The translations under genes and the position numbers were made by a program. From IMG/VR virus record IMGVR_UViG_3300032266_000608, positions 1-29,916 of that record: a DNA stretch of 29,916 bases; one strand, 5' to 3'. Shown here piece after piece: positions 1,850 through 24,522 of this stretch; position 1 is the stretch's first letter, and each line of letters opens with the position of its first letter. The DNA comes from a virus (taxonomy: Duplodnaviria > Caudoviricetes). The notes below the pieces were generated by a model. It saw nothing but the letters and a program-made list of their open reading frames with translations, ran no database searches and was not told the origin of the DNA.

Positions 1850-2128
1850 TTATTTGAGACCACACGATACTTCGGTGATAATTCTACGTAAGAAGTCAAG
1901 ACCTCCACGTACGTCCCTAAGAGCCTCGCCCTCAAGGTGGCTTCGATCCGAGTGTGACTTGATAGTCGTTTTCATATGAGTGATAATGTCCAACGCCCAT
2001 TGAAGCTGTTGCACTTGCCTGTGTGATTTAGACTTGCTATGGATCTCGGCCCCCTTACTCGGTACCGATTCATAGATTGCTGGAACTTTAACATCATAAC
2101 CAATTTCTGCGAGTGTGCTGATCATCAT
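1850..2128 (-). CDS. hypothetical protein
   Basis: 92 aa; strong RBS AAGGAGG upstream. Confidence 0.6.
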   Translation of the reverse strand: MMISTLAEIGYDVKVPAIYESVPSKGAEIHSKSKSHRQVQQLQWALDIITHMKTTIKSHSDRSHLEGEALRDVRGGLDFLRRIITEVSCGLK

Positions 2129-2147
2129 ACTTGTTTCCTCCTTTTTC

Positions 2148-7893: not shown

Positions 7894-8517
7894 TTAGGCT
7901 AGTTTGACTTGGATAACAGCGGGGTAGATCGCTTGGAGCTTGGCGTTGCCGTCAACACCCAACACAGCGGGACGTGCCTCGTGGAATCCAGCCTTCGGGG
8001 AGAATCCGCTCGTATAACTCACAGCCGAGGAAAGGCCGAGAGACTCAAAAAGTTTTGCAACCTTCTGAGCCACTTCGGCGTGACGCTCGACTGGAATCTT
8101 CGAGGATTCGACTTTGATCGTAAACTGCTCCGCAAAGTGATCGCCAAATCCGAGGCGTTCAATCTGCGTAAACAGAGCAGAGTGTTCGGGCTTTGCCAAA
8201 TCCAGCGAAGAATAGCGGTTGGTCGGCACTACCTTGGCCGAGCAATCCTTTCCTATCACTTCGACTGGATTGGGGAATGTCGCCCAGCAACGTGCCAACA
8301 CAGAGCCGAGAAACGCTTGCCGTGTTGCAGAGTTTTTATTTTCTAGCTCCGCAACTTCGTCACGTATCTGGTGCATCGTGCGGAGTTGACTATCCTCCAC
8401 TTCGCTCGCCGTAACTTGCGGGATAGTTTTTTTGTTGGACTTCTTTTGCAGACCAATCCCAGCCAACACCGAGGTAGGTCGCTTGGTTTCCGTTGTTTGT
8501 TTTGTTTGTGTGTCCAT
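7894..8517 (-). CDS. hypothetical protein, first (leaderless) gene of the long early operon
   Basis: 207 aa; ATG lies 6 nt after a -10 box. Confidence 0.7.
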   Translation of the reverse strand: MDTQTKQTTETKRPTSVLAGIGLQKKSNKKTIPQVTASEVEDSQLRTMHQIRDEVAELENKNSATRQAFLGSVLARCWATFPNPVEVIGKDCSAKVVPTNRYSSLDLAKPEHSALFTQIERLGFGDHFAEQFTIKVESSKIPVERHAEVAQKVAKLFESLGLSSAVSYTSGFSPKAGFHEARPAVLGVDGNAKLQAIYPAVIQVKLA

Positions 8518-8551: not shown

Positions 8552-8954
8552 CAGAAAAAAAGAAAATAGTTTTAACAAAGTTGACATCGTGTTGCCGTAC
8601 GTGATTCCGAAGAATTTGCGAAACGCAAAATCCCAGGCCGGGGGATGATTTCCAGGTGATGCCGGGCTTCGCATCCCGTCCGTTTGTTGAAAATGAACAA
8701 CTTACATTTTTGATGTGTGATTTGATTCTGATCCTGCGGCCGGCGCATTTTGCCCGTGCTGATAATCAGGTAGTTATGCAAGCCACAGTGTTTACGGCGG
8801 ATCTGCCTAAAAATCTAAATCACACACCTCATCCATAGCCGTTCGCTCGGTAGCTCGTTCGCTAGTTAACAACAAGTGATGTGTAAGTATATGGTACTAC
8901 CAATTTTAGAATTATTCTAAAGAGTGGTCTGGGAAAAACGTGGGAAAATTAGGA

Positions 8955-9010: not shown

Positions 9011-9373
9011 TTAAACCGCCAACCACTCCTCAATAGCGGAGGTAGCTCGACGAGCCTCCGTGCCCCGCCCGAAACAATCTTCGTATTTCAGCCCCAGATC
9101 GGAGCAGATTGAACGGAGCAGGGTCAGCCCATAAACTCCAGACAATTCCTCCACCCGCTGTCCGTCCACGAAAATCATCCCCTTGGGGTCTTTCTTCGAG
9201 GATTTGAACGAACGGATGAAACGGCCACGGACTGCATCGGGAAAGCCGTTCAGAACGGACGGATTCCAGATTGTGTGACCATCGCTCCCGATTTCTTCCA
9301 GTAGCTTGCGGATTTCATTTTTTAGCGAGGAATTGAACCGCCCCGCTTCGGTTTTTTGTGTGTGTGATTTCAT
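9011..9373 (-). CDS. hypothetical protein, monocistronic leaderless cassette
   Basis: 120 aa with its own promoter and terminator. Confidence 0.7.
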   Translation of the reverse strand: MKSHTQKTEAGRFNSSLKNEIRKLLEEIGSDGHTIWNPSVLNGFPDAVRGRFIRSFKSSKKDPKGMIFVDGQRVEELSGVYGLTLLRSICSDLGLKYEDCFGRGTEARRATSAIEEWLAV

Positions 9374-9379
9374 CCTGCG

Positions 9380-9408
9380 AAAATACCAACGGCCTCCGTA
9401 CGTGTCAA
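9380..9408 (-). promoter_or_regulatory. sigma70-type leaderless promoter
   Basis: TTGACA(9408-9403)-N17-TGn-TATTTT(9385-9380)-N6-ATG9373. Confidence 0.65.
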
Positions 9409-9470: not shown

Positions 9471-9507
9471 AAAAAAAAGGAGCGGGAGATTTCTCCCCCG
9501 CCCCTTT
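9471..9507 (-). terminator. intrinsic terminator (paralogous to 8955-8993)
   Basis: Minus strand GGGGCGGGGGAG-loop-CTCCCGCTCC followed by T8. Confidence 0.75.
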
Positions 9508-10260: not shown

Positions 10261-10455
10261 TTAATTGAAAAAACCAGCCGACACACGCCAGCCGATAATT
10301 TCAAAATATCCATAGCCGACAACCAAAACCCGAACGCCACGATGCAAGACCAGACGGATGCGGGAGAGGGAGATTTGAACTCCCCTTCCCCCGCCCCACG
10401 CCACACACATACCGCCGAGTGTGTAGCCACGGATGCCCTTGGAGAACTTAAACAT
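10261..10455 (-). CDS. hypothetical protein
   Basis: ATG10455 with GGAG RBS, overlapping the end of the amidotransferase gene. Confidence 0.4.
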   Translation of the reverse strand: MFKFSKGIRGYTLGGMCVAWGGGRGVQISLSRIRLVLHRGVRVLVVGYGYFEIIGWRVSAGFFN

Positions 10456-11470
10456 CGCAGTCTCCAAAATTATCCGTCACGAACTTCGTTCCAGCGTAAT
10501 CGGGAACGCCGTAATCGGATGCCCCGAACTTCCGTGCTTCCACCTCCTCCCAATGGTCAAGGTAGAGTTTACGAGCCACACGGAAGCCACGATTTGACGA
10601 ATAGTGGCCTTTATCGTTTGGGTCAGTCATCCACCGCAAAAACGAATCGGAAACCGCTGGATTTTTGCGAACCCATTTTTTCCAATCCGATTTGTTGCCG
10701 TACGACTCCACCCAATCACACCACGCCTCTGCGTTCAAATGATCGCCGAGGAACTCTTGGAATAGAGCCTCCGTGTCATCGTCCTCCGTCATCATCACGT
10801 CCGAGGAAACCGCAGTCTCTCCCGCATAATGCGAGGGAAGCCGAGAATCCACGCCACGGAAACCTAGCTCCGTCTGCTTGTAGCCCTTGTAGCCTCCAGA
10901 GTAGTAGGACGTTGTCGGGTACGTGAATGCCTTGTAAGAGCTATTCGAATACCACACGCCCCGATCATCGTCCCAATGCCCCGCCCCTTCGTTCACGATT
11001 AGGTGCTTTCCGTCAGCACGAAGGAAACAGAACTTATTGGAGTACCCAGCGAGGAGATGCAGATTCAACGATGCGTGACTGCTCCACAGCCACTCTCCCG
11101 CCGTGTCCCGCTGATTCGGTTTCACGAGGAGATTTGCGAAATGCCAAGTATCGCTGAACTGCTTTTCTGGGGTGGGAATTGTCAAAATCCCGTTATGAAT
11201 AAAGGCGGTAGAATCATCCACCAAAAAGGGGTGACAATTCGCCTCATTCTTGTCTCCGTGCGTTGCCATTCTCAAATGAATGATGGCGGGATATTCCTTA
11301 AACTTTTCGAGAGTGTGTAGAATACCATCCAACTTCATTGAACGCACCACGTGGATTTTTTTGCCCAACGCAACGGCCATTCCAAAGCCATCGCCGTTCG
11401 CCTTACTTGCCGTGACGATATGGCTAGGTGGGATTTTCCCACCCGCCGTTTTATAGATTGCTAAACACAT
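10448..11470 (-). CDS. class II (Ntn) glutamine amidotransferase
   Basis: N-terminal Met-Cys nucleophile; NGDGFG, HLRMATHG, NCHPF, HNG and SDT motifs. Confidence 0.9.
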   Translation of the reverse strand: MCLAIYKTAGGKIPPSHIVTASKANGDGFGMAVALGKKIHVVRSMKLDGILHTLEKFKEYPAIIHLRMATHGDKNEANCHPFLVDDSTAFIHNGILTIPTPEKQFSDTWHFANLLVKPNQRDTAGEWLWSSHASLNLHLLAGYSNKFCFLRADGKHLIVNEGAGHWDDDRGVWYSNSSYKAFTYPTTSYYSGGYKGYKQTELGFRGVDSRLPSHYAGETAVSSDVMMTEDDDTEALFQEFLGDHLNAEAWCDWVESYGNKSDWKKWVRKNPAVSDSFLRWMTDPNDKGHYSSNRGFRVARKLYLDHWEEVEARKFGASDYGVPDYAGTKFVTDNFGDCDV

Positions 11471-12669
11471 TATGCTACCCTCCCTTTATTGTGTCCCATT
11501 TTGTCGAAGGCAACGTTGCCCCAACCATTGTTAATGAGACGATTTTTTAGAGCCAAAACGGAACAGCCGATTCCGCTTGCGATTTTTTCCAGCCCGACTT
11601 CCGAAACAGCAAACCACGCCGAGCCGTTTGGCTCGTAAATAAATGGGATGCTATTGACCATAGCGAAACAGCGGGGAATGCCACGTGTCCCGCTTGTAGG
11701 TACTGGTATCCGCAGTCTCCGTGCCAACTGATCGCAGGACAGCGAAGGAACAATCCACGAAGCCTTCAATTCCTCTGCGAGACAATCCAACGTGAAGTTA
11801 AGATTGCCACACGCCGATGCAATAGCAGGACGTGATTCGTGTGTGGATTCAGCCACAGCGGATTCACGCTCCCGCCACATCCTAGAACGTAGCTCCCGCT
11901 GGATGCTGGATTGAACCTCTTTATACTGGTCAACGAATTGGGAGAGATTCGGCCAGCGGAGAAGCCGTGCATCCGATTCGTCTCTGGATTTCAAAAAATC
12001 CAAGAAACCATCTTCCGTACGCACCGACTTTTCTGCCTCACCGAACGCCCAAACCGCCTCCGCAAACTCCACCGCACGAAGGATTGAGGCGGGACGAAGA
12101 TTGCCCCGAAAAATCCGCAATTCGTGTGTGCTATGCCGAGGATTCGTATTGACCGCCACGTAGCGATCAGAGCAACGCCGACTGCGTCCGTTTATGTAAC
12201 GCCCAGCGTCAGCCTTATTGCGAATCGTGTGAAACTTACACCAACGACTATTTTCCCGCCCAGCGAGGGAGAGAACGAAATTGCGAATGGCGGGATGTTC
12301 CACAGCCAAAACCGCAGATGCGTCCTTTCCGCTCATACCGAACTGGGGGATATGCGTATGCAAACCACACGTGGACGTGTCCCACGATTGCAGACCACGC
12401 CTCACAGATTGCGTCAGCAAACCGCCCCACATTTCCGTGTGATACTTTCTGCCCATAGGACGTGTAACGATTTCAAAGCCGTGCGATAGACTGCCATCGC
12501 CTTTGATAATCACACGTTCGCCCTCGGAGTTAAGAGCGGAAAGAACCTCGGATGCCTTTTCCGAGATATTTTCGCCGACATACTCCACTTCCAATTCAAC
12601 GCCAATGGTAGGCAGTCCGTCCAACGCTGGAGCGGTACGAGCATCACTTCCGAGAATCACGTTCGGCAT
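11470..12669 (-). CDS. putative amidoligase (COOH-NH2 ligase, Amidoligase_2 type)
   Basis: TIGVELEVE, DGSL, FEIVT, TCGLHTH, RYVAVN, ELRIFRG; ATG12669 has AAGGAG RBS; TAATG-coupled to the amidotransferase. Confidence 0.85.
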   Translation of the reverse strand: MPNVILGSDARTAPALDGLPTIGVELEVEYVGENISEKASEVLSALNSEGERVIIKGDGSLSHGFEIVTRPMGRKYHTEMWGGLLTQSVRRGLQSWDTSTCGLHTHIPQFGMSGKDASAVLAVEHPAIRNFVLSLAGRENSRWCKFHTIRNKADAGRYINGRSRRCSDRYVAVNTNPRHSTHELRIFRGNLRPASILRAVEFAEAVWAFGEAEKSVRTEDGFLDFLKSRDESDARLLRWPNLSQFVDQYKEVQSSIQRELRSRMWRERESAVAESTHESRPAIASACGNLNFTLDCLAEELKASWIVPSLSCDQLARRLRIPVPTSGTRGIPRCFAMVNSIPFIYEPNGSAWFAVSEVGLEKIASGIGCSVLALKNRLINNGWGNVAFDKMGHNKGRVA

Positions 12670-12670
12670 T

Positions 12671-12844
12671 TTAGTTTTTCTCCTTCCGTGTGTGCTTTGA
12701 TACGTTCCATTTTTCAGCGTAAGAATCACGATCTCCGAACGAATACGACGAGAAGTATTCTACGGAACTCACACGTGCGAGAGTTTCAGTTTTTTTGCGA
12801 ATGTCTTGAACGGCCTTCGCTTCCGTTGTGTTTTGTGTTTCCAT
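12671..12844 (-). CDS. small leaderless first gene of the amidoligase operon
   Basis: METQNTTEAK..., 57 aa; ATG 6 nt after the -10 box. Confidence 0.6.
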   Translation of the reverse strand: METQNTTEAKAVQDIRKKTETLARVSSVEYFSSYSFGDRDSYAEKWNVSKHTRKEKN

Positions 12845-12850
12845 ACTCAA

Positions 12851-12879
12851 AAAGTACACCTGCCAGCCTTCAGCGTCAA
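12851..12879 (-). promoter_or_regulatory. sigma70-type leaderless promoter
   Basis: TTGACG(12879-12874)-N17-TACTTT(12856-12851)-N6-ATG12844. Confidence 0.65.
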
Positions 12880-13149
12880 CTTTTTATTACACACCTACAG
12901 AGAGTGTCAGGGGGTGTGTGTCACCAAAAAAAACGATTTCCAGGGAACGTCAAAAATCAAAACACACCACGTTGCACGTCAACGATTTCCAAAAAAGGGG
13001 GAAAAAAAGAAAAGAAACAAAATCACACATCATCCAATCCGTCCATAGAGAGCAGAGTTTAGAGAACCCCTTGACGTGTGATATTCTTTTGGCGTTGGTC
13101 TTTTGCGTCCGTTTCAAATCACACACCACGCACCCGCAACTACACGCCT

Positions 13150-13499: not shown

Positions 13500-14530
13500 A
13501 ATGTATTGTATTGTGTATTACAGATACACTTACGTAGTAGGTGTATCTGATTCTCCTTTAGTGTATTATGTATTGGATGATTGATATGACTCTTGCTGAT
13601 TCTGAGAAGCAAGTGTCATTGGTTGTGTATTGATTCAAGTGAATGAGTATGTAGGACCGGAATGTCCTGGGATTAGATAATCAGAATACTATGATAGTCA
13701 GATAGTTATGTTAGTTAGAGACGCAAGATGTTGATAGTGTTGGCATTATAGATTTAACAATGATGATCTACTGCTACATTGATGGGATCTATTTATCGAT
13801 AAGTATAAGTATTGATATGATAGTAAGGTATATAAAGATAGTATCCATATATGATATGATAATGATATATGAAATATATATTGATGTCGATAAGATTATG
13901 ATAGATGTGTTTGCTTCTTCATCTATAGTGTTGGAGTTATGTTTACATTCTATAAGTTAAAGATCATAAGTAGTTGTATCTAAAGCTATTGAGTATAAGT
14001 TCGATAAGTGGATTGATGTATTGTTATTGTTTATATAGTTATAGATCAGATAGTATGATAGTGATATGATAAGAGATAAGATAGGTAAGTAGATAATGTA
14101 TTGATTGTATTATGATTATGTAATGAATAGTATGTAAGTTATTGTATGTTAATGTTATAGTGTTATAGTTAATAGATAGTGATAGAGTATTGTATATAGT
14201 TATGATGATAAGAGATATAGTATTATTAGTATGATGATATGTATTATGTATGTATGTTGTTATGTGTATTGTTATTATATATGTAGTTGTATATTAGTTA
14301 GTTAGTTATCTTTATTAGTATTGGTATATCTTATCTATTATATCTGTATCATTATGTTTATATGTCTATGTTTGTTGTTATTGTTGTTAGTGTTATACTT
14401 ACTTAATTGTCCTATTCTATTTTATTATTATTATAATCTATATTCTTTATTATCTTTATATACTATACCCATCCCTCTACTTTACTCTATCTACTTATTA
14501 CTTATTACTATTATTAAATTTTTTTTTAAT
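13500..14530. other. ~1-kb non-coding, very AT-rich, strand-skewed low-complexity tract
   Basis: Built from GATA/TGAT/GTAT words; C-poor up to ~14320, then G-poor at ~14400-14520. Confidence 0.85.
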
Positions 14531-14648
14531 GAGTGTGTCAACATTTTATGCATAGAAAGTGTCAACCACATACATCAAAGGAGTCCCATGCGGCCATATT
14601 CTGGGAGTCCCATGGGGTATATCATATGGGTGTCATAAGGGGTGTCAT

Positions 14649-18701: not shown

Positions 18702-18936
18702 GGCGTTTACCTATATTAGCCATAGCCTCCTCTCTTCTTTTTTGCAAATAATCTTCCCAGAGTGTTGCGGCTTTCATCGCATCCTCTTTGTTTGTGAAAG
18801 AAAATAATGGGTCTGGGTGTTTACCCCCCATAACAAACCTATGCCCCATTGGGTTTTCGCCGCAAACATCACTTCGAGTCCATAGGTTAAATCTGTCATC
18901 TTCACGTCTAATAAAAACTTCAACTGCGATGTTCAT
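18688..18936 (-). CDS. hypothetical protein
   Basis: 82 aa, ATGA-coupled. Confidence 0.6.
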   Translation of the reverse strand: MNIAVEVFIRREDDRFNLWTRSDVCGENPMGHRFVMGGKHPDPLFSFTNKEDAMKAATLWEDYLQKRREEAMANIGKRRGKN

Positions 18937-19676
18937 ATAATGACCTTCTTAATAGTTCCAGGCGGGAGAATGTCCTTAAACGCCATCCCCTTGTTTATTG
19001 GATTCATGCGTTTGAAGTTTCTGTTGCTCTGAAAGTCTGACCAGAATCTTGCAAGAATCGACTGCCATCTCATAATCGGCCTTCCAGAGAGTTCCCAATT
19101 CATGTCATTCAATCTAATGAACTCCGTCTTTAGCCACCCCTCATCAGCCATAAGCCGTTTGCCTTCTGCCATCCATTGTTCGATTGTCGGAACGCCGCTA
19201 GTAGCTGGCTTATGGCTACTGGTTATATGGTTATTGGCTTCTGGCTTATGGTTATTCGGCATCAATTCAGCATCAACAGAAACATCAAACTCTGGTTTTT
19301 TAACTTCCCTAGTTTTTCTGATATAACGCTTCTGGCTTTCGTTGTGCAACTTGCGGGCCTTACTTTCACGTAAAAGCCTACGTGAGTATATGATCATTCT
19401 GTCATCACGAGCAAAGACACCTGCATTTTCAAGCTCGTCAAGTAGTGACTTAACCTTGCTGATTGCTTCTGCCGTGTTTCCAACACCAACAGCCATCGAA
19501 AGCATCCTTTCGTCCATCGGTCTGTCAGCATCATTTTTGAGATACCCATACTCTGGGGATCTTGCCATAAGGCAGAGCATATCGATCCAGAGTCCACGGG
19601 CTTCCAGACTTACCATTCTGAGGGCGTTGTCCGACATCCAATCCCTTACATAAAACTGCAGGAATTGCATTTTCAT
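18933..19676 (-). CDS. phage replication initiator (DUF1376/YdaU, lambda O-like organisation)
   Basis: FLQFYVRDWMSD..LRMVSLEARGLWIDMLCLM; internal iteron-like repeats; followed by a DnaC-like gene. Confidence 0.75.
   Translation of the reverse strand: MKMQFLQFYVRDWMSDNALRMVSLEARGLWIDMLCLMARSPEYGYLKNDADRPMDERMLSMAVGVGNTAEAISKVKSLLDELENAGVFARDDRMIIYSRRLLRESKARKLHNESQKRYIRKTREVKKPEFDVSVDAELMPNNHKPEANNHITSSHKPATSGVPTIEQWMAEGKRLMADEGWLKTEFIRLNDMNWELSGRPIMRWQSILARFWSDFQSNRNFKRMNPINKGMAFKDILPPGTIKKVII
19205..19256. repeat. iteron-like direct repeats (candidate origin)
   Basis: CTGGCTTATGG at 19205 and 19241, CTGGTTATATGGTTATT at 19219, in the linker of the initiator gene. Confidence 0.55.
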
Positions 19677-20050
19677 TTGGTTTCCTCCTTAATAATTCGG
19701 ATGAATGTCATTTGGACATCACCCCTTTTGTGTGTGTGAAAAACTGATCGAACCACTCCAGGGTTGTCATCTGGCAAATAGCCGAGTTCGACAAGGCTAT
19801 CGAGGAGGTCTTTGGTGTCGTAGTTGTCGATATCAAGCAACCTTGGCCGAATGTGGTGGAACCAGATATCGTATGTTTCTTTGCGTCCAGAACAGCTTTT
19901 CTTGCCTCCTGCTTTAGCCTTCGATTTATTGCCCAATGAAGTCGCTTTGTCTTGTTTCTGCTTGGAACGGCGTAATTCAGCTCCAGTACCAATATCTCTT
20001 GGAATGGAGTACCCAAGTTGTTTAATTTGTCGTCGTGTAACACGGCTCAT
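19673..20050 (-). CDS. rusA: RusA-like Holliday junction resolvase, catalytic C-terminal part
   Basis: RLLDIDNYDTKDLLDSLVELGYLPDD matches the RusA D-x-D-N..K..D..L.....DD motif. Confidence 0.7.
   Translation of the reverse strand: MSRVTRRQIKQLGYSIPRDIGTGAELRRSKQKQDKATSLGNKSKAKAGGKKSCSGRKETYDIWFHHIRPRLLDIDNYDTKDLLDSLVELGYLPDDNPGVVRSVFHTHKRGDVQMTFIRIIKEETK
19708..20043 (-). CDS. overlapping frame carrying a RusA N-terminal-like segment
   Basis: ILVLELNYAVPSRNKTKRLHWAINRRLKQEARKAV resembles the P-S-x-N...HW....K N-terminus of RusA-family proteins. Confidence 0.55.
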   Translation of the reverse strand: MLHDDKLNNLGTPFQEILVLELNYAVPSRNKTKRLHWAINRRLKQEARKAVLDAKKHTISGSTTFGQGCLISTTTTPKTSSIALSNSAICQMTTLEWFDQFFTHTKGVMSK

Positions 20051-20080
20051 TATTTTCCTTTTTTGAGCAAAGCATCGTGC

Positions 20081-20109
20081 CTTCTAACAATCTAATTATA
20101 GCGTGTCAA
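20081..20109 (-). promoter_or_regulatory. promoter of the replication operon
   Basis: TTGACA(20109-20104)-N17-TAGAAG(20086-20081). Confidence 0.5.
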
Positions 20110-20119
20110 CATTTTTTAC

Positions 20120-20147
20120 TTGCATGAAATATTTTTCTAAATACATT
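20120..20147 (+). promoter_or_regulatory. promoter of the putative small RNA
   Basis: TTGCAT(20120-20125)-N16-TACATT(20142-20147); predicted start ~20153-20155 coincides with the stem start. Confidence 0.55.
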
Positions 20148-20154
20148 TACCCAC

Positions 20155-20233
20155 GACGGCTATGGGTTCCCCTTCTCGGGGTTCAGCGCGGTTTGTGTGT
20201 CCCGCTGGTTTCCTCCCCATAGCCGTCTTTTTT
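20155..20233 (+). ncRNA. putative ~80-nt three-way-junction antisense small RNA
   Basis: 12-bp closing stem GACGGCTATGGG/CCCATAGCCGTC plus T6; two internal hairpins; own promoter. Confidence 0.65.
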
Positions 20234-20310
20234 CTACTGAAGAACAACAATTTACACGAAAAAGATCAAAAAAAGCTAGACACGCCCATTTTATCCCATA
20301 TGGTCAAGCT

Positions 20311-20478
20311 ATGGGGAAACAAGATCTTGTAACACTACACATCCCGAGGGAAGTGGCAGACGCACTCGAAGGCATCTGCGAAAAACATTGTTTTGGAAAA
20401 TGGACTTATCTTGCCAGAAGAATTTTGGCTCTCTACGTAAGAGAACAAACAGAAACAACAAAAGGAGGAAAAAAATGA
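20311..20478 (+). CDS. small ribbon-helix-helix-like DNA-binding protein
   Basis: VTLHIPREVADALEGIC.....KWTYLARRIL; TAGACA-N16-TATGGT-N6-ATG20311. Confidence 0.6.
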   Translation: MGKQDLVTLHIPREVADALEGICEKHCFGKWTYLARRILALYVREQTETTKGGKK

Positions 20479-21374
20479 GTGACGAGATTATCGTACATAA
20501 CGGAAACCACAATTCGATTACATCCAACTGGAGGCAGTCCACGGATGTCGCTCACGTCTGCCGAGAAATCGTAAATCAGACCGCCAAGAATATTGGGGGT
20601 CGCAGGTATGTGCAGGTCGAGGGATGGCAGAGCATCGCCACGGCGTACGGGTGCGTAGCATCAGCTAGAGATGTTGAGAAAATCGAGGGCGGTTACAGGG
20701 CAATCGGCGAAGTTAAGAGAATGGACAATGGTCAAGTAATCTCTCAGGCCGAAGGCTTTGTCGGAGACGACGAGGCGACTTGGGGTAAGCGTCCAGTCTA
20801 CGCACGCAGGGCCATGGCACAGACACGAGCGATTAGCAGAGCCTGCAGATCCGCATTCGCACACGTGGTTGTGCTAATCGACAAATCTTTGTCGACCACG
20901 CCGGCGGAGGAGGTGCCAGAGGGAGGCTTTGAACCCACCCCCAAGACATTCACAGTCCGAGAGGTATCTGCAACTGAAATCACACAAGCTCCACGGCAAG
21001 ATGAAATGTACGTAAGAAAAGCAACACAGCTCAAGTCTGCGGAGGTTACAATTGAGCGAATGGAGCAACCAGAGGAAAAGCCAAAGAAAGCTCCCGCTAA
21101 AATCACACAAGCCACAGGTGGGTGGCGTGACGTAACAATGCGTTTTGGCTCAAAGAAGGGCAACACTCTTGGAGATATTGAGGCCAACGATCAGCGGTAC
21201 CTAAAGTGGCTCTCATCTACATTTGAGCCTGGACTCAAAAAAGACGGAACTCCGTGGCCAGAGGACGTTAAGTTGCGAACTGCGCTGGACGAGTTCAAGC
21301 GGGAGTGCGAATCCGAGAAGTCGGTGCCAACCTCAAGCTATGCTACTGGTGAGGATGAGGGCGTGCCGTTTTGA
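20475..21374 (+). CDS. ssDNA-annealing recombinase (Rad52/ERF-like) with C-terminal accessory domain and SSB-like tail
   Basis: AMAQTRAISRA motif; MRFGSKKG..L......YLKWL domain; C-terminus EDEGVPF; AAGGAGG RBS at ATG20475. Confidence 0.7.
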   Translation: MSDEIIVHNGNHNSITSNWRQSTDVAHVCREIVNQTAKNIGGRRYVQVEGWQSIATAYGCVASARDVEKIEGGYRAIGEVKRMDNGQVISQAEGFVGDDEATWGKRPVYARRAMAQTRAISRACRSAFAHVVVLIDKSLSTTPAEEVPEGGFEPTPKTFTVREVSATEITQAPRQDEMYVRKATQLKSAEVTIERMEQPEEKPKKAPAKITQATGGWRDVTMRFGSKKGNTLGDIEANDQRYLKWLSSTFEPGLKKDGTPWPEDVKLRTALDEFKRECESEKSVPTSSYATGEDEGVPF

Positions 21375-22866: not shown

Positions 22867-24522
22867 ATGTCAGCCATAGGGCAAGTTCCCATAGCTCCCG
22901 CTGTTGCGGCTCCAATACCCGTTGGGGCTATCTCCGTTTCATCATTAGCCGCCCTAACTCTGGCGCAGCAAGATACCATTGTAAGGGGAACTGTCGTAGT
23001 TACGGCAACTGGGTCTTTTGTGTATACAGGCTATGGAAGCAAGACATCATCGGCTAATTATGTAGTGCTAGTTGATACGGCCCAATTTGCAACCCTTGCA
23101 AATGTAGAAACACACCGACAAGACCAAGACGACGTACATGGGATTTATGACACGGCCTACTTGGCGTACAAAGAAGATAGCTCAAATATTTTTCACAGAA
23201 ACCTGCTTGGTTGGCCTTCTGGATCAATGACTAGCGCAAGGGGGACGGAACAAAGCTTCCATAACTACGGATCTTCTCCGACACTTTTTGACGGGACTGA
23301 GGGTTGGTCAACAACATCAAGGCCAATCTACTACGTTCCTATATTCATCAAAAATACTGCGTCGGTTGCGTTTAGCTTAAGGATTCCAGTAAAGAATTAT
23401 TCTGGATTCATCTCGGCCGCCCTATTTGCCGGCGATAACTACAACGGATCTACACAACCCACTTCGAATGGGCACATGACCCTTGTTCGCAATCTTGGAA
23501 CAAACCTTGTAGTAAACGCAGAGGATGAAACAGCCGTATTTACTCCAGCAACATTTGGAGTTAAAAGGGGCTGGCATTTTATAGCATTAAGCTTTACCAC
23601 GGATCCTACAGGGAAAGTCTACAGATCTATATACAGCCCTAACGGCCCAACACCCGCAGAGCAGATGTTCGGAATGCAGCAACGCAGATCGTTCATTGAG
23701 GATACAACTGAAAAGCAAAGAAGAATTGGAAGCGTAATCCGAAGAGTGGATGGCACGCCAACTTGGCCCCCAGATACATCTACAGCACCAAGACTTTTTA
23801 ATTATGTAGAGAACCCAGTAACCCCGAAGTTGATTTACCAATTTACCGGGCCAGATGGATCTGTCGCTGTTTCCAACACAAATAACACGAGGCCGTCATA
23901 CATGGAGCCGTCCATTGATTACAGTTCATACGCATATCCGTCAGTCCAAAGATTCAATGACGGAAGCCCACCATCATCACCAGCATTACTTAGCTTTGCG
24001 TCAGTAAGCGCGCAGGGTGGATATAACCTATTGGCATCTGCTGTCGCAGGGGCATACAACATAAATACAAGCACAAGGTTCCAAATAGATTTTTCGTCGG
24101 TAGCGCATAGAATTACCGAATGCAAATTTTATACGCGCTCAACAGCGACTGGTCCAACAAACATACAGACGTTCATTTACTCTGGTCTATCATCGCCATC
24201 AAGCGGATTAACTTCGAGCAATACCGCAGTTTCAACCACAAGCACTTGGCAAATTGCTTCCTTTAGTCCTGCAGGAATTGCACCGCTTTCTACATATACG
24301 CAAATACAAATAATTGGGTATGGGGGCACAGCAGCTGCGGCATCGGGAAACTGGCGAATTGACAATATTGAGATCCGTGGGACATATAAACACCCAGACA
24401 GTCCCGCAGACTGGTCTGGAATGAACTCCAGTAATCACTATTTTGGATTTAGTGAAGTTGTGCCATTATTTTACTGGGGATACAATAGTTTGGTTACTGC
24501 TGGAAGTTACTCAAACATATGA
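22867..24522 (+). CDS. putative virion/tail-associated beta-rich protein
   Basis: 551 aa rich in S/T/G/aromatics; own leaderless promoter TTGTAA-N17-TATAAA-N6-ATG; function inferred from composition only. Confidence 0.5.
   Translation: MSAIGQVPIAPAVAAPIPVGAISVSSLAALTLAQQDTIVRGTVVVTATGSFVYTGYGSKTSSANYVVLVDTAQFATLANVETHRQDQDDVHGIYDTAYLAYKEDSSNIFHRNLLGWPSGSMTSARGTEQSFHNYGSSPTLFDGTEGWSTTSRPIYYVPIFIKNTASVAFSLRIPVKNYSGFISAALFAGDNYNGSTQPTSNGHMTLVRNLGTNLVVNAEDETAVFTPATFGVKRGWHFIALSFTTDPTGKVYRSIYSPNGPTPAEQMFGMQQRRSFIEDTTEKQRRIGSVIRRVDGTPTWPPDTSTAPRLFNYVENPVTPKLIYQFTGPDGSVAVSNTNNTRPSYMEPSIDYSSYAYPSVQRFNDGSPPSSPALLSFASVSAQGGYNLLASAVAGAYNINTSTRFQIDFSSVAHRITECKFYTRSTATGPTNIQTFIYSGLSSPSSGLTSSNTAVSTTSTWQIASFSPAGIAPLSTYTQIQIIGYGGTAAAASGNWRIDNIEIRGTYKHPDSPADWSGMNSSNHYFGFSEVVPLFYWGYNSLVTAGSYSNI

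Follow-up and report, generated by a model that had tools for sequence, protein, structure and literature searches.

A predicted phage small RNA with two exposed stretches complementary to translation starts of early and replication genes

The CI RNA of phage P4 is cut from the leader of the operon that it controls and causes termination, and antisense RNAs of the sar, OOP and plasmid RNAI type are cis-encoded, overlapping their target on the opposite strand. The C4 antisense RNA of P1/P7, as described in PMC5320573, is ~77 nt long, folds into stems P1–P3 and uses two loops as seeds, one of which acts on an RBS. Together with sar, OOP and aQ, the RNAs PreS, VpdS (PMC12197685) and SviR (10.1101/2022.04.08.487710) are reported to be encoded by phages or satellites and to adjust phage development through base pairing. 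Among bacterial sRNAs, GcvB silences ACA translation enhancers through its GU-rich seed R1 (PMC3879156), and sRNAs such as mycobacterial B11/6C, which come from organisms without Hfq, carry C-rich loops (PMC12395582). Leaderless translation is enhanced by CA repeats downstream of the start codon, and the control of leaderless mRNAs by sRNAs is entered as “Unknown” in a table of a 2022 review (PMC9031893). Among the titles found in the literature none described the present RNA or a phage sRNA acting on leaderless mRNA, and six of the supplementary files of PMC10690425 were searched and gave no match.

The predicted RNA belongs to an uncultured phage represented by the linear virus record IMGVR_UViG_3300032266_000608, whose 29,916 nt are called the window here. 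The runs that contain the region come from freshwater, lake or aquatic metagenomes wherever a habitat is given. A scan of 47 ORFs identified genes for a terminase, a major head protein, an O-like initiator, a DnaC-like loader, a RusA-like resolvase and an exonuclease; it turned up no integrase, in a record estimated to be 41% complete. The element sits between a leftward promoter (20109–20081), whose −35 hexamer is kept in the relatives L170 and L171 and whose −10 reads TAGAAG or TAAAAG there, and a rightward promoter (20277–20304). Coordinates are collected in Table 1. The initiator gene contains short tandem repeats (~19210–19260 on the minus strand; 994–1047 in L170 and 1157–1209 in L171) that are iteron-like and comparable to lambdoid origins. 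Elsewhere, the early region holds a glutamine amidotransferase-like and amidoligase-like gene pair (10448–12729, minus strand), and the 551-aa gene at 22867–24522 is largely replaced in the close relative L001 (8586–9864), marking a variable cassette. The AT-rich non-coding stretch at 13620–14560 differs strongly in composition between its strands (T 410, A 296, G 170, C 64), has imperfect repeats and adjoins the terminase genes; it is possibly a genome end or packaging region.

Table 1 Predicted element, its parts, its neighbours and its predicted targets in the window
Feature	Position	Strand	Remarks
Predicted RNA promoter, TTGCAT-N16-TACATT	20120..20147	+	TTGCAT 20120–20125, TACATT 20142–20147
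Predicted 79-nt small RNA, three-way junction with U tail	20155..20233	+	Fold, z −6.45
P1 closing stem, 12 bp	20155–20166 with 20216–20227	+	All 12 pairs unchanged across the 3 distinct sequences
P2 hairpin, variable in length and sequence	20169..20181	+	19-base insertion in L171
P3 hairpin, GU-rich loop	20184..20207	+	3/6 pairs vary one-sidedly; 1 cell unpaired
Seed 1, GU loop	20191..20202	+	9-base core 20194–20202 in all three lineages
Seed 2, C-rich anti-Shine-Dalgarno junction	20206..20216	+	Unpaired core 20209–20215
T6 tract, predicted 3′ end	20228..20233	+	T7 in L170 and L171; T8 in L168 and run X9
Divergent promoter of RusA-like/initiator/DnaC-like operon	20081..20109	−	Back to back with RNA promoter
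Downstream promoter (20277–20304) and predicted leaderless 55-aa gene 20311..20478	20277..20478	+	Promoter by scan
Predicted leaderless gene 7894..8517: promoter 8551–8524 and first codons	8504..8551	−	Best predicted seed 1 target, 8515–8504
Predicted leaderless gene 9011..9373: promoter 9408–9380 and CA-rich start	9355..9408	−	9-base seed 1 match
Third predicted leaderless gene, start 12844, CA-rich	12820..12880	−	7-base seed 1 match; promoter by eye, not in scan
RBS of O-like replication initiator 18933..19676	19676..19688	−	11-base seed 2 match
RBS of gene 1850..2128	2133..2141	−	9-base seed 2 match

The initial annotation had read this locus as a stand-alone small RNA with its own promoter and a closing stem that ends in a T tract and encloses two hairpins. 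All coordinates of the promoter hexamers, the 16-base spacer, the 12-bp stem, the T6 tract and the two inner hairpins check, and the segment folds at −38.4 kcal/mol, with none of 200 shuffles as good. The promoter lies below the threshold of a consensus scan and is absent from its list; it is backed by conservation instead, since both hexamers and the 16-base spacing are kept in L170 (TTGCAC-N16-TACTTT) and L171 (TTGCAC-N16-TACATT) around a divergent spacer. P1 starts with GAC, 6–7 bases past the conserved −10 hexamer. Because the reverse strand of the element folds about equally well, the strand assignment rests on the promoter, the T tract and the G·U pairs. Intergenic copies of CGGCTATGGAT at 8831–8841 and 10308–10318 (minus strand) resemble the 5′ strand of the P1 stem.

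A scan with the initiator protein returned five metagenome loci, three of which reach the element: L168, near-identical to the window, and L170 and L171, whose neighbouring genes are 79–83% identical to those of the window in DNA. With L001 counted in, the sequences form three distinct lineages, L170 and L171 being the diverged ones. All 26 bases before the T tract, including seed 2, are identical in both diverged relatives (26/26); the promoter stretch is identical at 21 and 24 of 35 positions, and the downstream flank at 7 of 17. Both relatives share the three-way fold (L170, 84 nt, z −4.35; L171, 102 nt, z −4.85). Across the three lineages 65 of 66 pair cells are paired and one of 22 pairs is changed on both sides; one P2 pair reads C–G, A–U and U–A, and P3 carries one-sided G·U-type changes. 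The stems proposed earlier do recur in relatives, with every P1 pair and the overall fold kept, but covariation gives them no significant backing: 86 of 500 column shuffles are as good, a non-significant outcome that is expected because only three sequences are available. Run X9 has a substitution in the P2 loop (20177 C>T) plus a longer T tract. The loops of L170 and L171 end in an extra CCUCC, which suggests selection for anti-Shine-Dalgarno character in general. No reading frame is conserved from the ATG at 20162, its distances to the anchor being 40, 44 and 62, and in L171 the frame runs into a stop. That the element is kept in two diverged lineages supports the earlier proposal of a stand-alone structured RNA gene, and we consider it very probable that 20155–20233, with its predicted transcript, is a small RNA gene.

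The RNA family appears narrow, since the searches of viral sequences, of genome contigs and with a covariance model returned no further member. Viral pattern scans gave 84, 8 and 9 loci, among which the L001 contig alone folds like the element, and in L002–L080 and L173–L184 the gene order differs. Cultured phages gave no match to the element, and the genome contigs searched gave no homologue. The covariance model recovered its three training sequences and nothing else in 97 sources (1.14 Mb), and nothing in five whole distant phage records. Rfam gave no match in the window at gathering score; up to E 10 it gave three weak matches in 19950–20550, none on the element, so that membership in the families of the C4 and CI RNAs, which the initial annotation had cited as similarly sized phage antisense RNAs, was not borne out. 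No tRNA or tmRNA genes were found. Contigs of the RNA runs X19 and X20 cover 19896–20062 and then from ~20438, not the element, and X19 covers only 8430–8493 near the 8517 site; because assembled contigs lose short RNAs, this missing coverage is no evidence either way.

The matches that had suggested targets are confirmed in detail. The loop sequence 20191–20202 recurs at 8504–8515 as the window's only exact 12-mer match, and the junction 20206–20216 is identical to 19678–19688. The reported matches to the start of the 9373 gene and to the RBS of gene 1850..2128 correspond to TTTGTGTGT at 9355–9363, which also matches 19727 and 3543 inside genes, and to GTTTCCTCC at 2133–2141, which also matches 5717. 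Of the five 11-base matches in the window, one is at a gene start and the other four lie away from starts; for the 9-base loop core the window offers a single other complement, at 8515–8507. The seeds had been described as a loop and an unpaired junction, and this holds for most of their bases; however, the fold predicts pairing for 3 of the 12 loop bases and ~4 of the 11 junction bases, with opening costs of 4.3 and 6.2 kcal/mol, respectively.

Translation starts were listed by eye, 51 in all. A start was called leaderless where a promoter ended 5–6 bases before the ATG and no Shine-Dalgarno sequence was present, as at 4 of the 51 (8517, 9373, 12844 and 20311); the promoters of 8517, 9373 and 20311 came from the scan, that of 12844 from inspection by eye. 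The bases after the ATG at the three early leaderless starts are 82–95% A+C with 4–6 ACA triplets, compared with 59% and 0.6 at other starts. Targets were scored as ungapped helices with opening costs, under an energy model that ignores the topology of hairpin loop and junction. With the window RNA, 8517 comes first of the 51 starts on this scale (−13.6), followed by 2128, 9373, 4462 and 19676; it also comes first with the L171 RNA and is second, behind 9373, with the L170 RNA. When both strands of the window are scored, 8517 takes second place with the window and L171 RNAs and about fourteenth with the L170 RNA, several of whose top window-wide sites lie on non-coding strands. Only the start at 1330 matches both seeds by at least seven bases; the second sites present in 8517 and the initiator mRNA are in non-collinear order. 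Whole-molecule cofolding, a method that cannot model loop pairings, gave weak values (best −2.8), placed other starts first and was left out of account. In codons 1–4 of gene 20311, eight bases can pair with seed 2 in the window (one G·U) and in L171. A 10-base complement at 20308–20317 was set aside, being partly upstream of the predicted start and lost in L171. The longest complements to E. coli 16S, 23S and 5S rRNA, which may not be the host's, are 6–9 bases and no better than those of shuffles.

Two further sequence features touch on the early region. The five promoters at 8517, 9373, 12844, 20311 and 20109 have in common a −35 region that reads TTGAC(A/G)C or TAGACAC, and that of the RNA is TTGCA; this differing −35 may mean different timing. 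The 9-mer AAATCACAC occurs in 13 copies on both strands (0.26 expected), clustered in the early region ahead of promoters and terminators (109, 2021, 8715, 8817, 8994, 9362, 9413, 9511, 13020, 13116, 13151, 20977 and 21100). It is not enriched in distant relatives, only six of its bases complement the RNA loop, and it is probably recognised, as DNA, by a protein of the phage or the host.

For both exposed stretches the matches to translation starts exceed chance, in tests that are post hoc in that seed boundaries and the list of starts were picked after the matches had been seen. A 12-base match in any start region arose in 14 of 20,000 letter permutations; 12-mers of the window match a start region at a rate of 4 in 10,000, or ~3% over the 68 12-mers of the RNA. 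Among junction variants that keep the anti-Shine-Dalgarno motif, 15 of 4,096 reach 11 bases. Among 150 structure-keeping permutations of the loop, one equalled its best score, none its summed leaderless score and 13 the number of starts that it reaches at −6 or better. For the junction, the best score was reached by 7 of 150 permutations and its eight starts at −6 or better by none of 150. Matches of at least seven bases fall at 7 of the 51 starts for the loop and at 8 of the 51 for the junction, against ~1.5 in downstream windows (0 of 1000 draws). The named targets thus beat both permutation and position controls. The caveat that anti-Shine-Dalgarno matches are partly generic nonetheless proved right, and it applies to both seeds (anti-Shine-Dalgarno and anti-CA enhancer), which fit start regions of almost any genome. 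Because of these generic matches, enrichment does not single out the phage targets; and since the seeds recognise generic initiation signals, the named genes probably belong to a wider class of targets.

The relatives had been proposed as a further check on the seed–target pairs, and here the pairing of the junction with the initiator RBS is found in all three lineages (11 bases in the window, 11 with one bulge in L170, 12 with two G·U pairs in L171; L169 carries the same initiator RBS as L171), whereas covariation is not observed. Simulated substitutions do as well in a fraction of 0.05–0.07 for L171 and 0.50–0.65 for L170. Because random substitutions pair as well so often (50–65% for L170), the pairing across lineages is persistence, not compensation. 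No compensatory two-sided change of seed and target was found in the three lineages, in which the junction and the 9-base loop core are invariant. In a cross-lineage matrix the strongest pairing of the L170 loop is with the cognate initiator RBS (−13.6, against −8.4 and −12.0). The L171 loop, however, favours the L170 RBS as well, and the window loop favours that of L171; because of these non-cognate preferences no compensation is claimed. At the protein level, homologues of the 8517 product begin with MDTQT in four of five non-self clusters, down to 78% identity, with residues 6–9 varying; the fifth cluster, P0007, begins with METQA, a difference that would disrupt the 12-base match if the RNA of that genome had not changed too. 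Positions 8504–8515 are unchanged in runs X9 and X15, strains too close to inform, and the viral contigs searched gave no relative of 8517.

On these grounds we lean towards a trans-acting repressor of the translation of early and replication genes, one that would work like C4 and GcvB and belong to neither family. The RNA would be made early by the host polymerase, and pairing of its 5′ and 3′ ends in P1 would stabilise it so that it accumulates. Its GU loop would then cover the first, CA-rich codons in leaderless mRNAs, with 8517 as the best case, followed by 9373 and 12844, and its C-rich junction would cover ribosome-binding sites of the GGAGGAAA type (initiator 19676, 2128, 4462 and others) and perhaps also the start of the leaderless regulator gene 20311. 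Translation of the paired mRNAs would be lowered, with a delayed damping of early expression as the net effect. A more tentative proposal, which we hold to be possible but rather doubtful, is a two-key translation timer in which the GU loop masks leaderless early starts and the anti-Shine-Dalgarno junction masks leadered replication mRNAs. The early shut-off or immunity circuit suggested in the initial annotation is partly supported: structure, conservation and target controls speak for an anti-start RNA, and the refuting checks that were run did not overturn it. Immunity found no support, no integrase having appeared among the 47 ORFs scanned in a record put at 41% completeness.

The same generic signals lend some weight to a different, unlikely reading, in which the RNA pairs with mRNA but mainly with that of the host or of competing phages, the matches in its own genome being a by-product. 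Each seed is complementary to general signals of initiation, a second CCUCC stretch is present in the L170 and L171 loops, and sRNAs acting on host or other-phage mRNA are described, namely PreS and VpdS (PMC12197685) and SviR (10.1101/2022.04.08.487710). However, the 12-base match exceeds a generic CA repeat and hits codons 1–5 of a predicted leaderless early gene; no cultured or genome-borne relative that would point to a host was found.

It is similarly improbable that the RNA acts by binding a protein, as a decoy or cofactor for an RNA-binding protein, nuclease or defence protein of the host or the phage, with its conservation reflecting protein recognition. The observation behind this idea is a real one: the invariance of all 24 P1 bases goes unexplained by seed pairing, and together with the 26 invariant bases at the 3′ side, and P2 free to vary, it exceeds what seed pairing needs. 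Stems change slowly at such distance, though, the conserved unpaired parts complement start regions beyond the permutation controls, and the element has no likeness in Rfam.

A cis-acting role is less probable still. As a leader or attenuator, or as an insulating terminator between back-to-back promoters, the element would control read-through into the 20311–20475 operon, which lies directly downstream. Such read-through is plausible because the T tract follows a long-range stem and not a local hairpin, a point in which the terminators at 9478 and 8963 differ. But the downstream operon has its own promoter at 20277–20304, kept in L171, and a terminator needs no two inner hairpins with conserved loops. 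The first gene of that operon, 20311..20478, did not figure in the initial annotation; its 55-aa product is 60% identical in L171 and gave a CopG/RHH-like Atlas lead (score 0.93, 157 shared features), so that it is a possible CopG/RHH-type regulator and a candidate for acting on the early promoters. A DNA-level feature such as an origin, cruciform or protein site, suggested by the similar folding of both strands and the adjoining replication genes, is very improbable given the one-sided G·U-type changes in P3, which fit a plus-strand RNA, the conserved promoter and T tract, and the iteron-like repeats that lie inside the initiator gene instead.

If the trans-acting repressor is right, the locus would offer a compact case of a small RNA acting on leaderless mRNAs, and phages could time the shut-off of early genes by seeds that target initiation signals instead of individual genes. 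If the timer holds as well, both modes of initiation would be shut off by RNA, and leaderless translation would be among the processes under sRNA control. Even with wrong targets, an RNA family absent from Rfam 15 would stand.

Set beside the known systems, the element resembles C4 in size, in its three stems and in having two exposed seeds, one directed at a ribosome-binding site (PMC5320573). As that source describes it, however, C4 is an RNase P product of a longer precursor with a 5′ GGW motif, targets a neighbouring antirepressor operon and serves immunity and lysogeny, whereas the element starts with GAC, is apparently a primary transcript with a promoter and U tail of its own, has predicted targets scattered over early genes, and shows no Rfam match and, in the 47 ORFs scanned, no sign of lysogeny. 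With GcvB it shares a GU-rich conserved seed complementary to CA-rich stretches near the starts of several targets, here predicted ones (PMC3879156). GcvB is a host RNA that depends on Hfq and acts through an unstructured seed on leadered mRNAs (PMC3879156), in contrast to this phage RNA with a hairpin-loop seed whose best sites are the first codons of predicted leaderless mRNAs; neither sequence nor Rfam indicates homology with GcvB. The likeness to B11/6C and other C-rich loop sRNAs lies in a C-rich exposed seed for target pairing (PMC12395582), and the element differs from them in having no sequence or Rfam match, an additional GU-rich seed and a phage origin. Like P4 CI it would be a small structured phage RNA acting through short loop pairings, but it does not overlap the leader of a controlled operon. 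Unlike sar and OOP it overlaps no target on the opposite strand, the leftward promoter at 20109–20081 lying outside it and its longest complement elsewhere being 12 bases, and no homology to sar, OOP, aQ, PreS, VpdS or SviR was found. What would set it apart is its predicted aim at leaderless CA-rich starts. The element thus appears to work like C4 and GcvB, yet it is a member of neither family and has no counterpart in Rfam 15.
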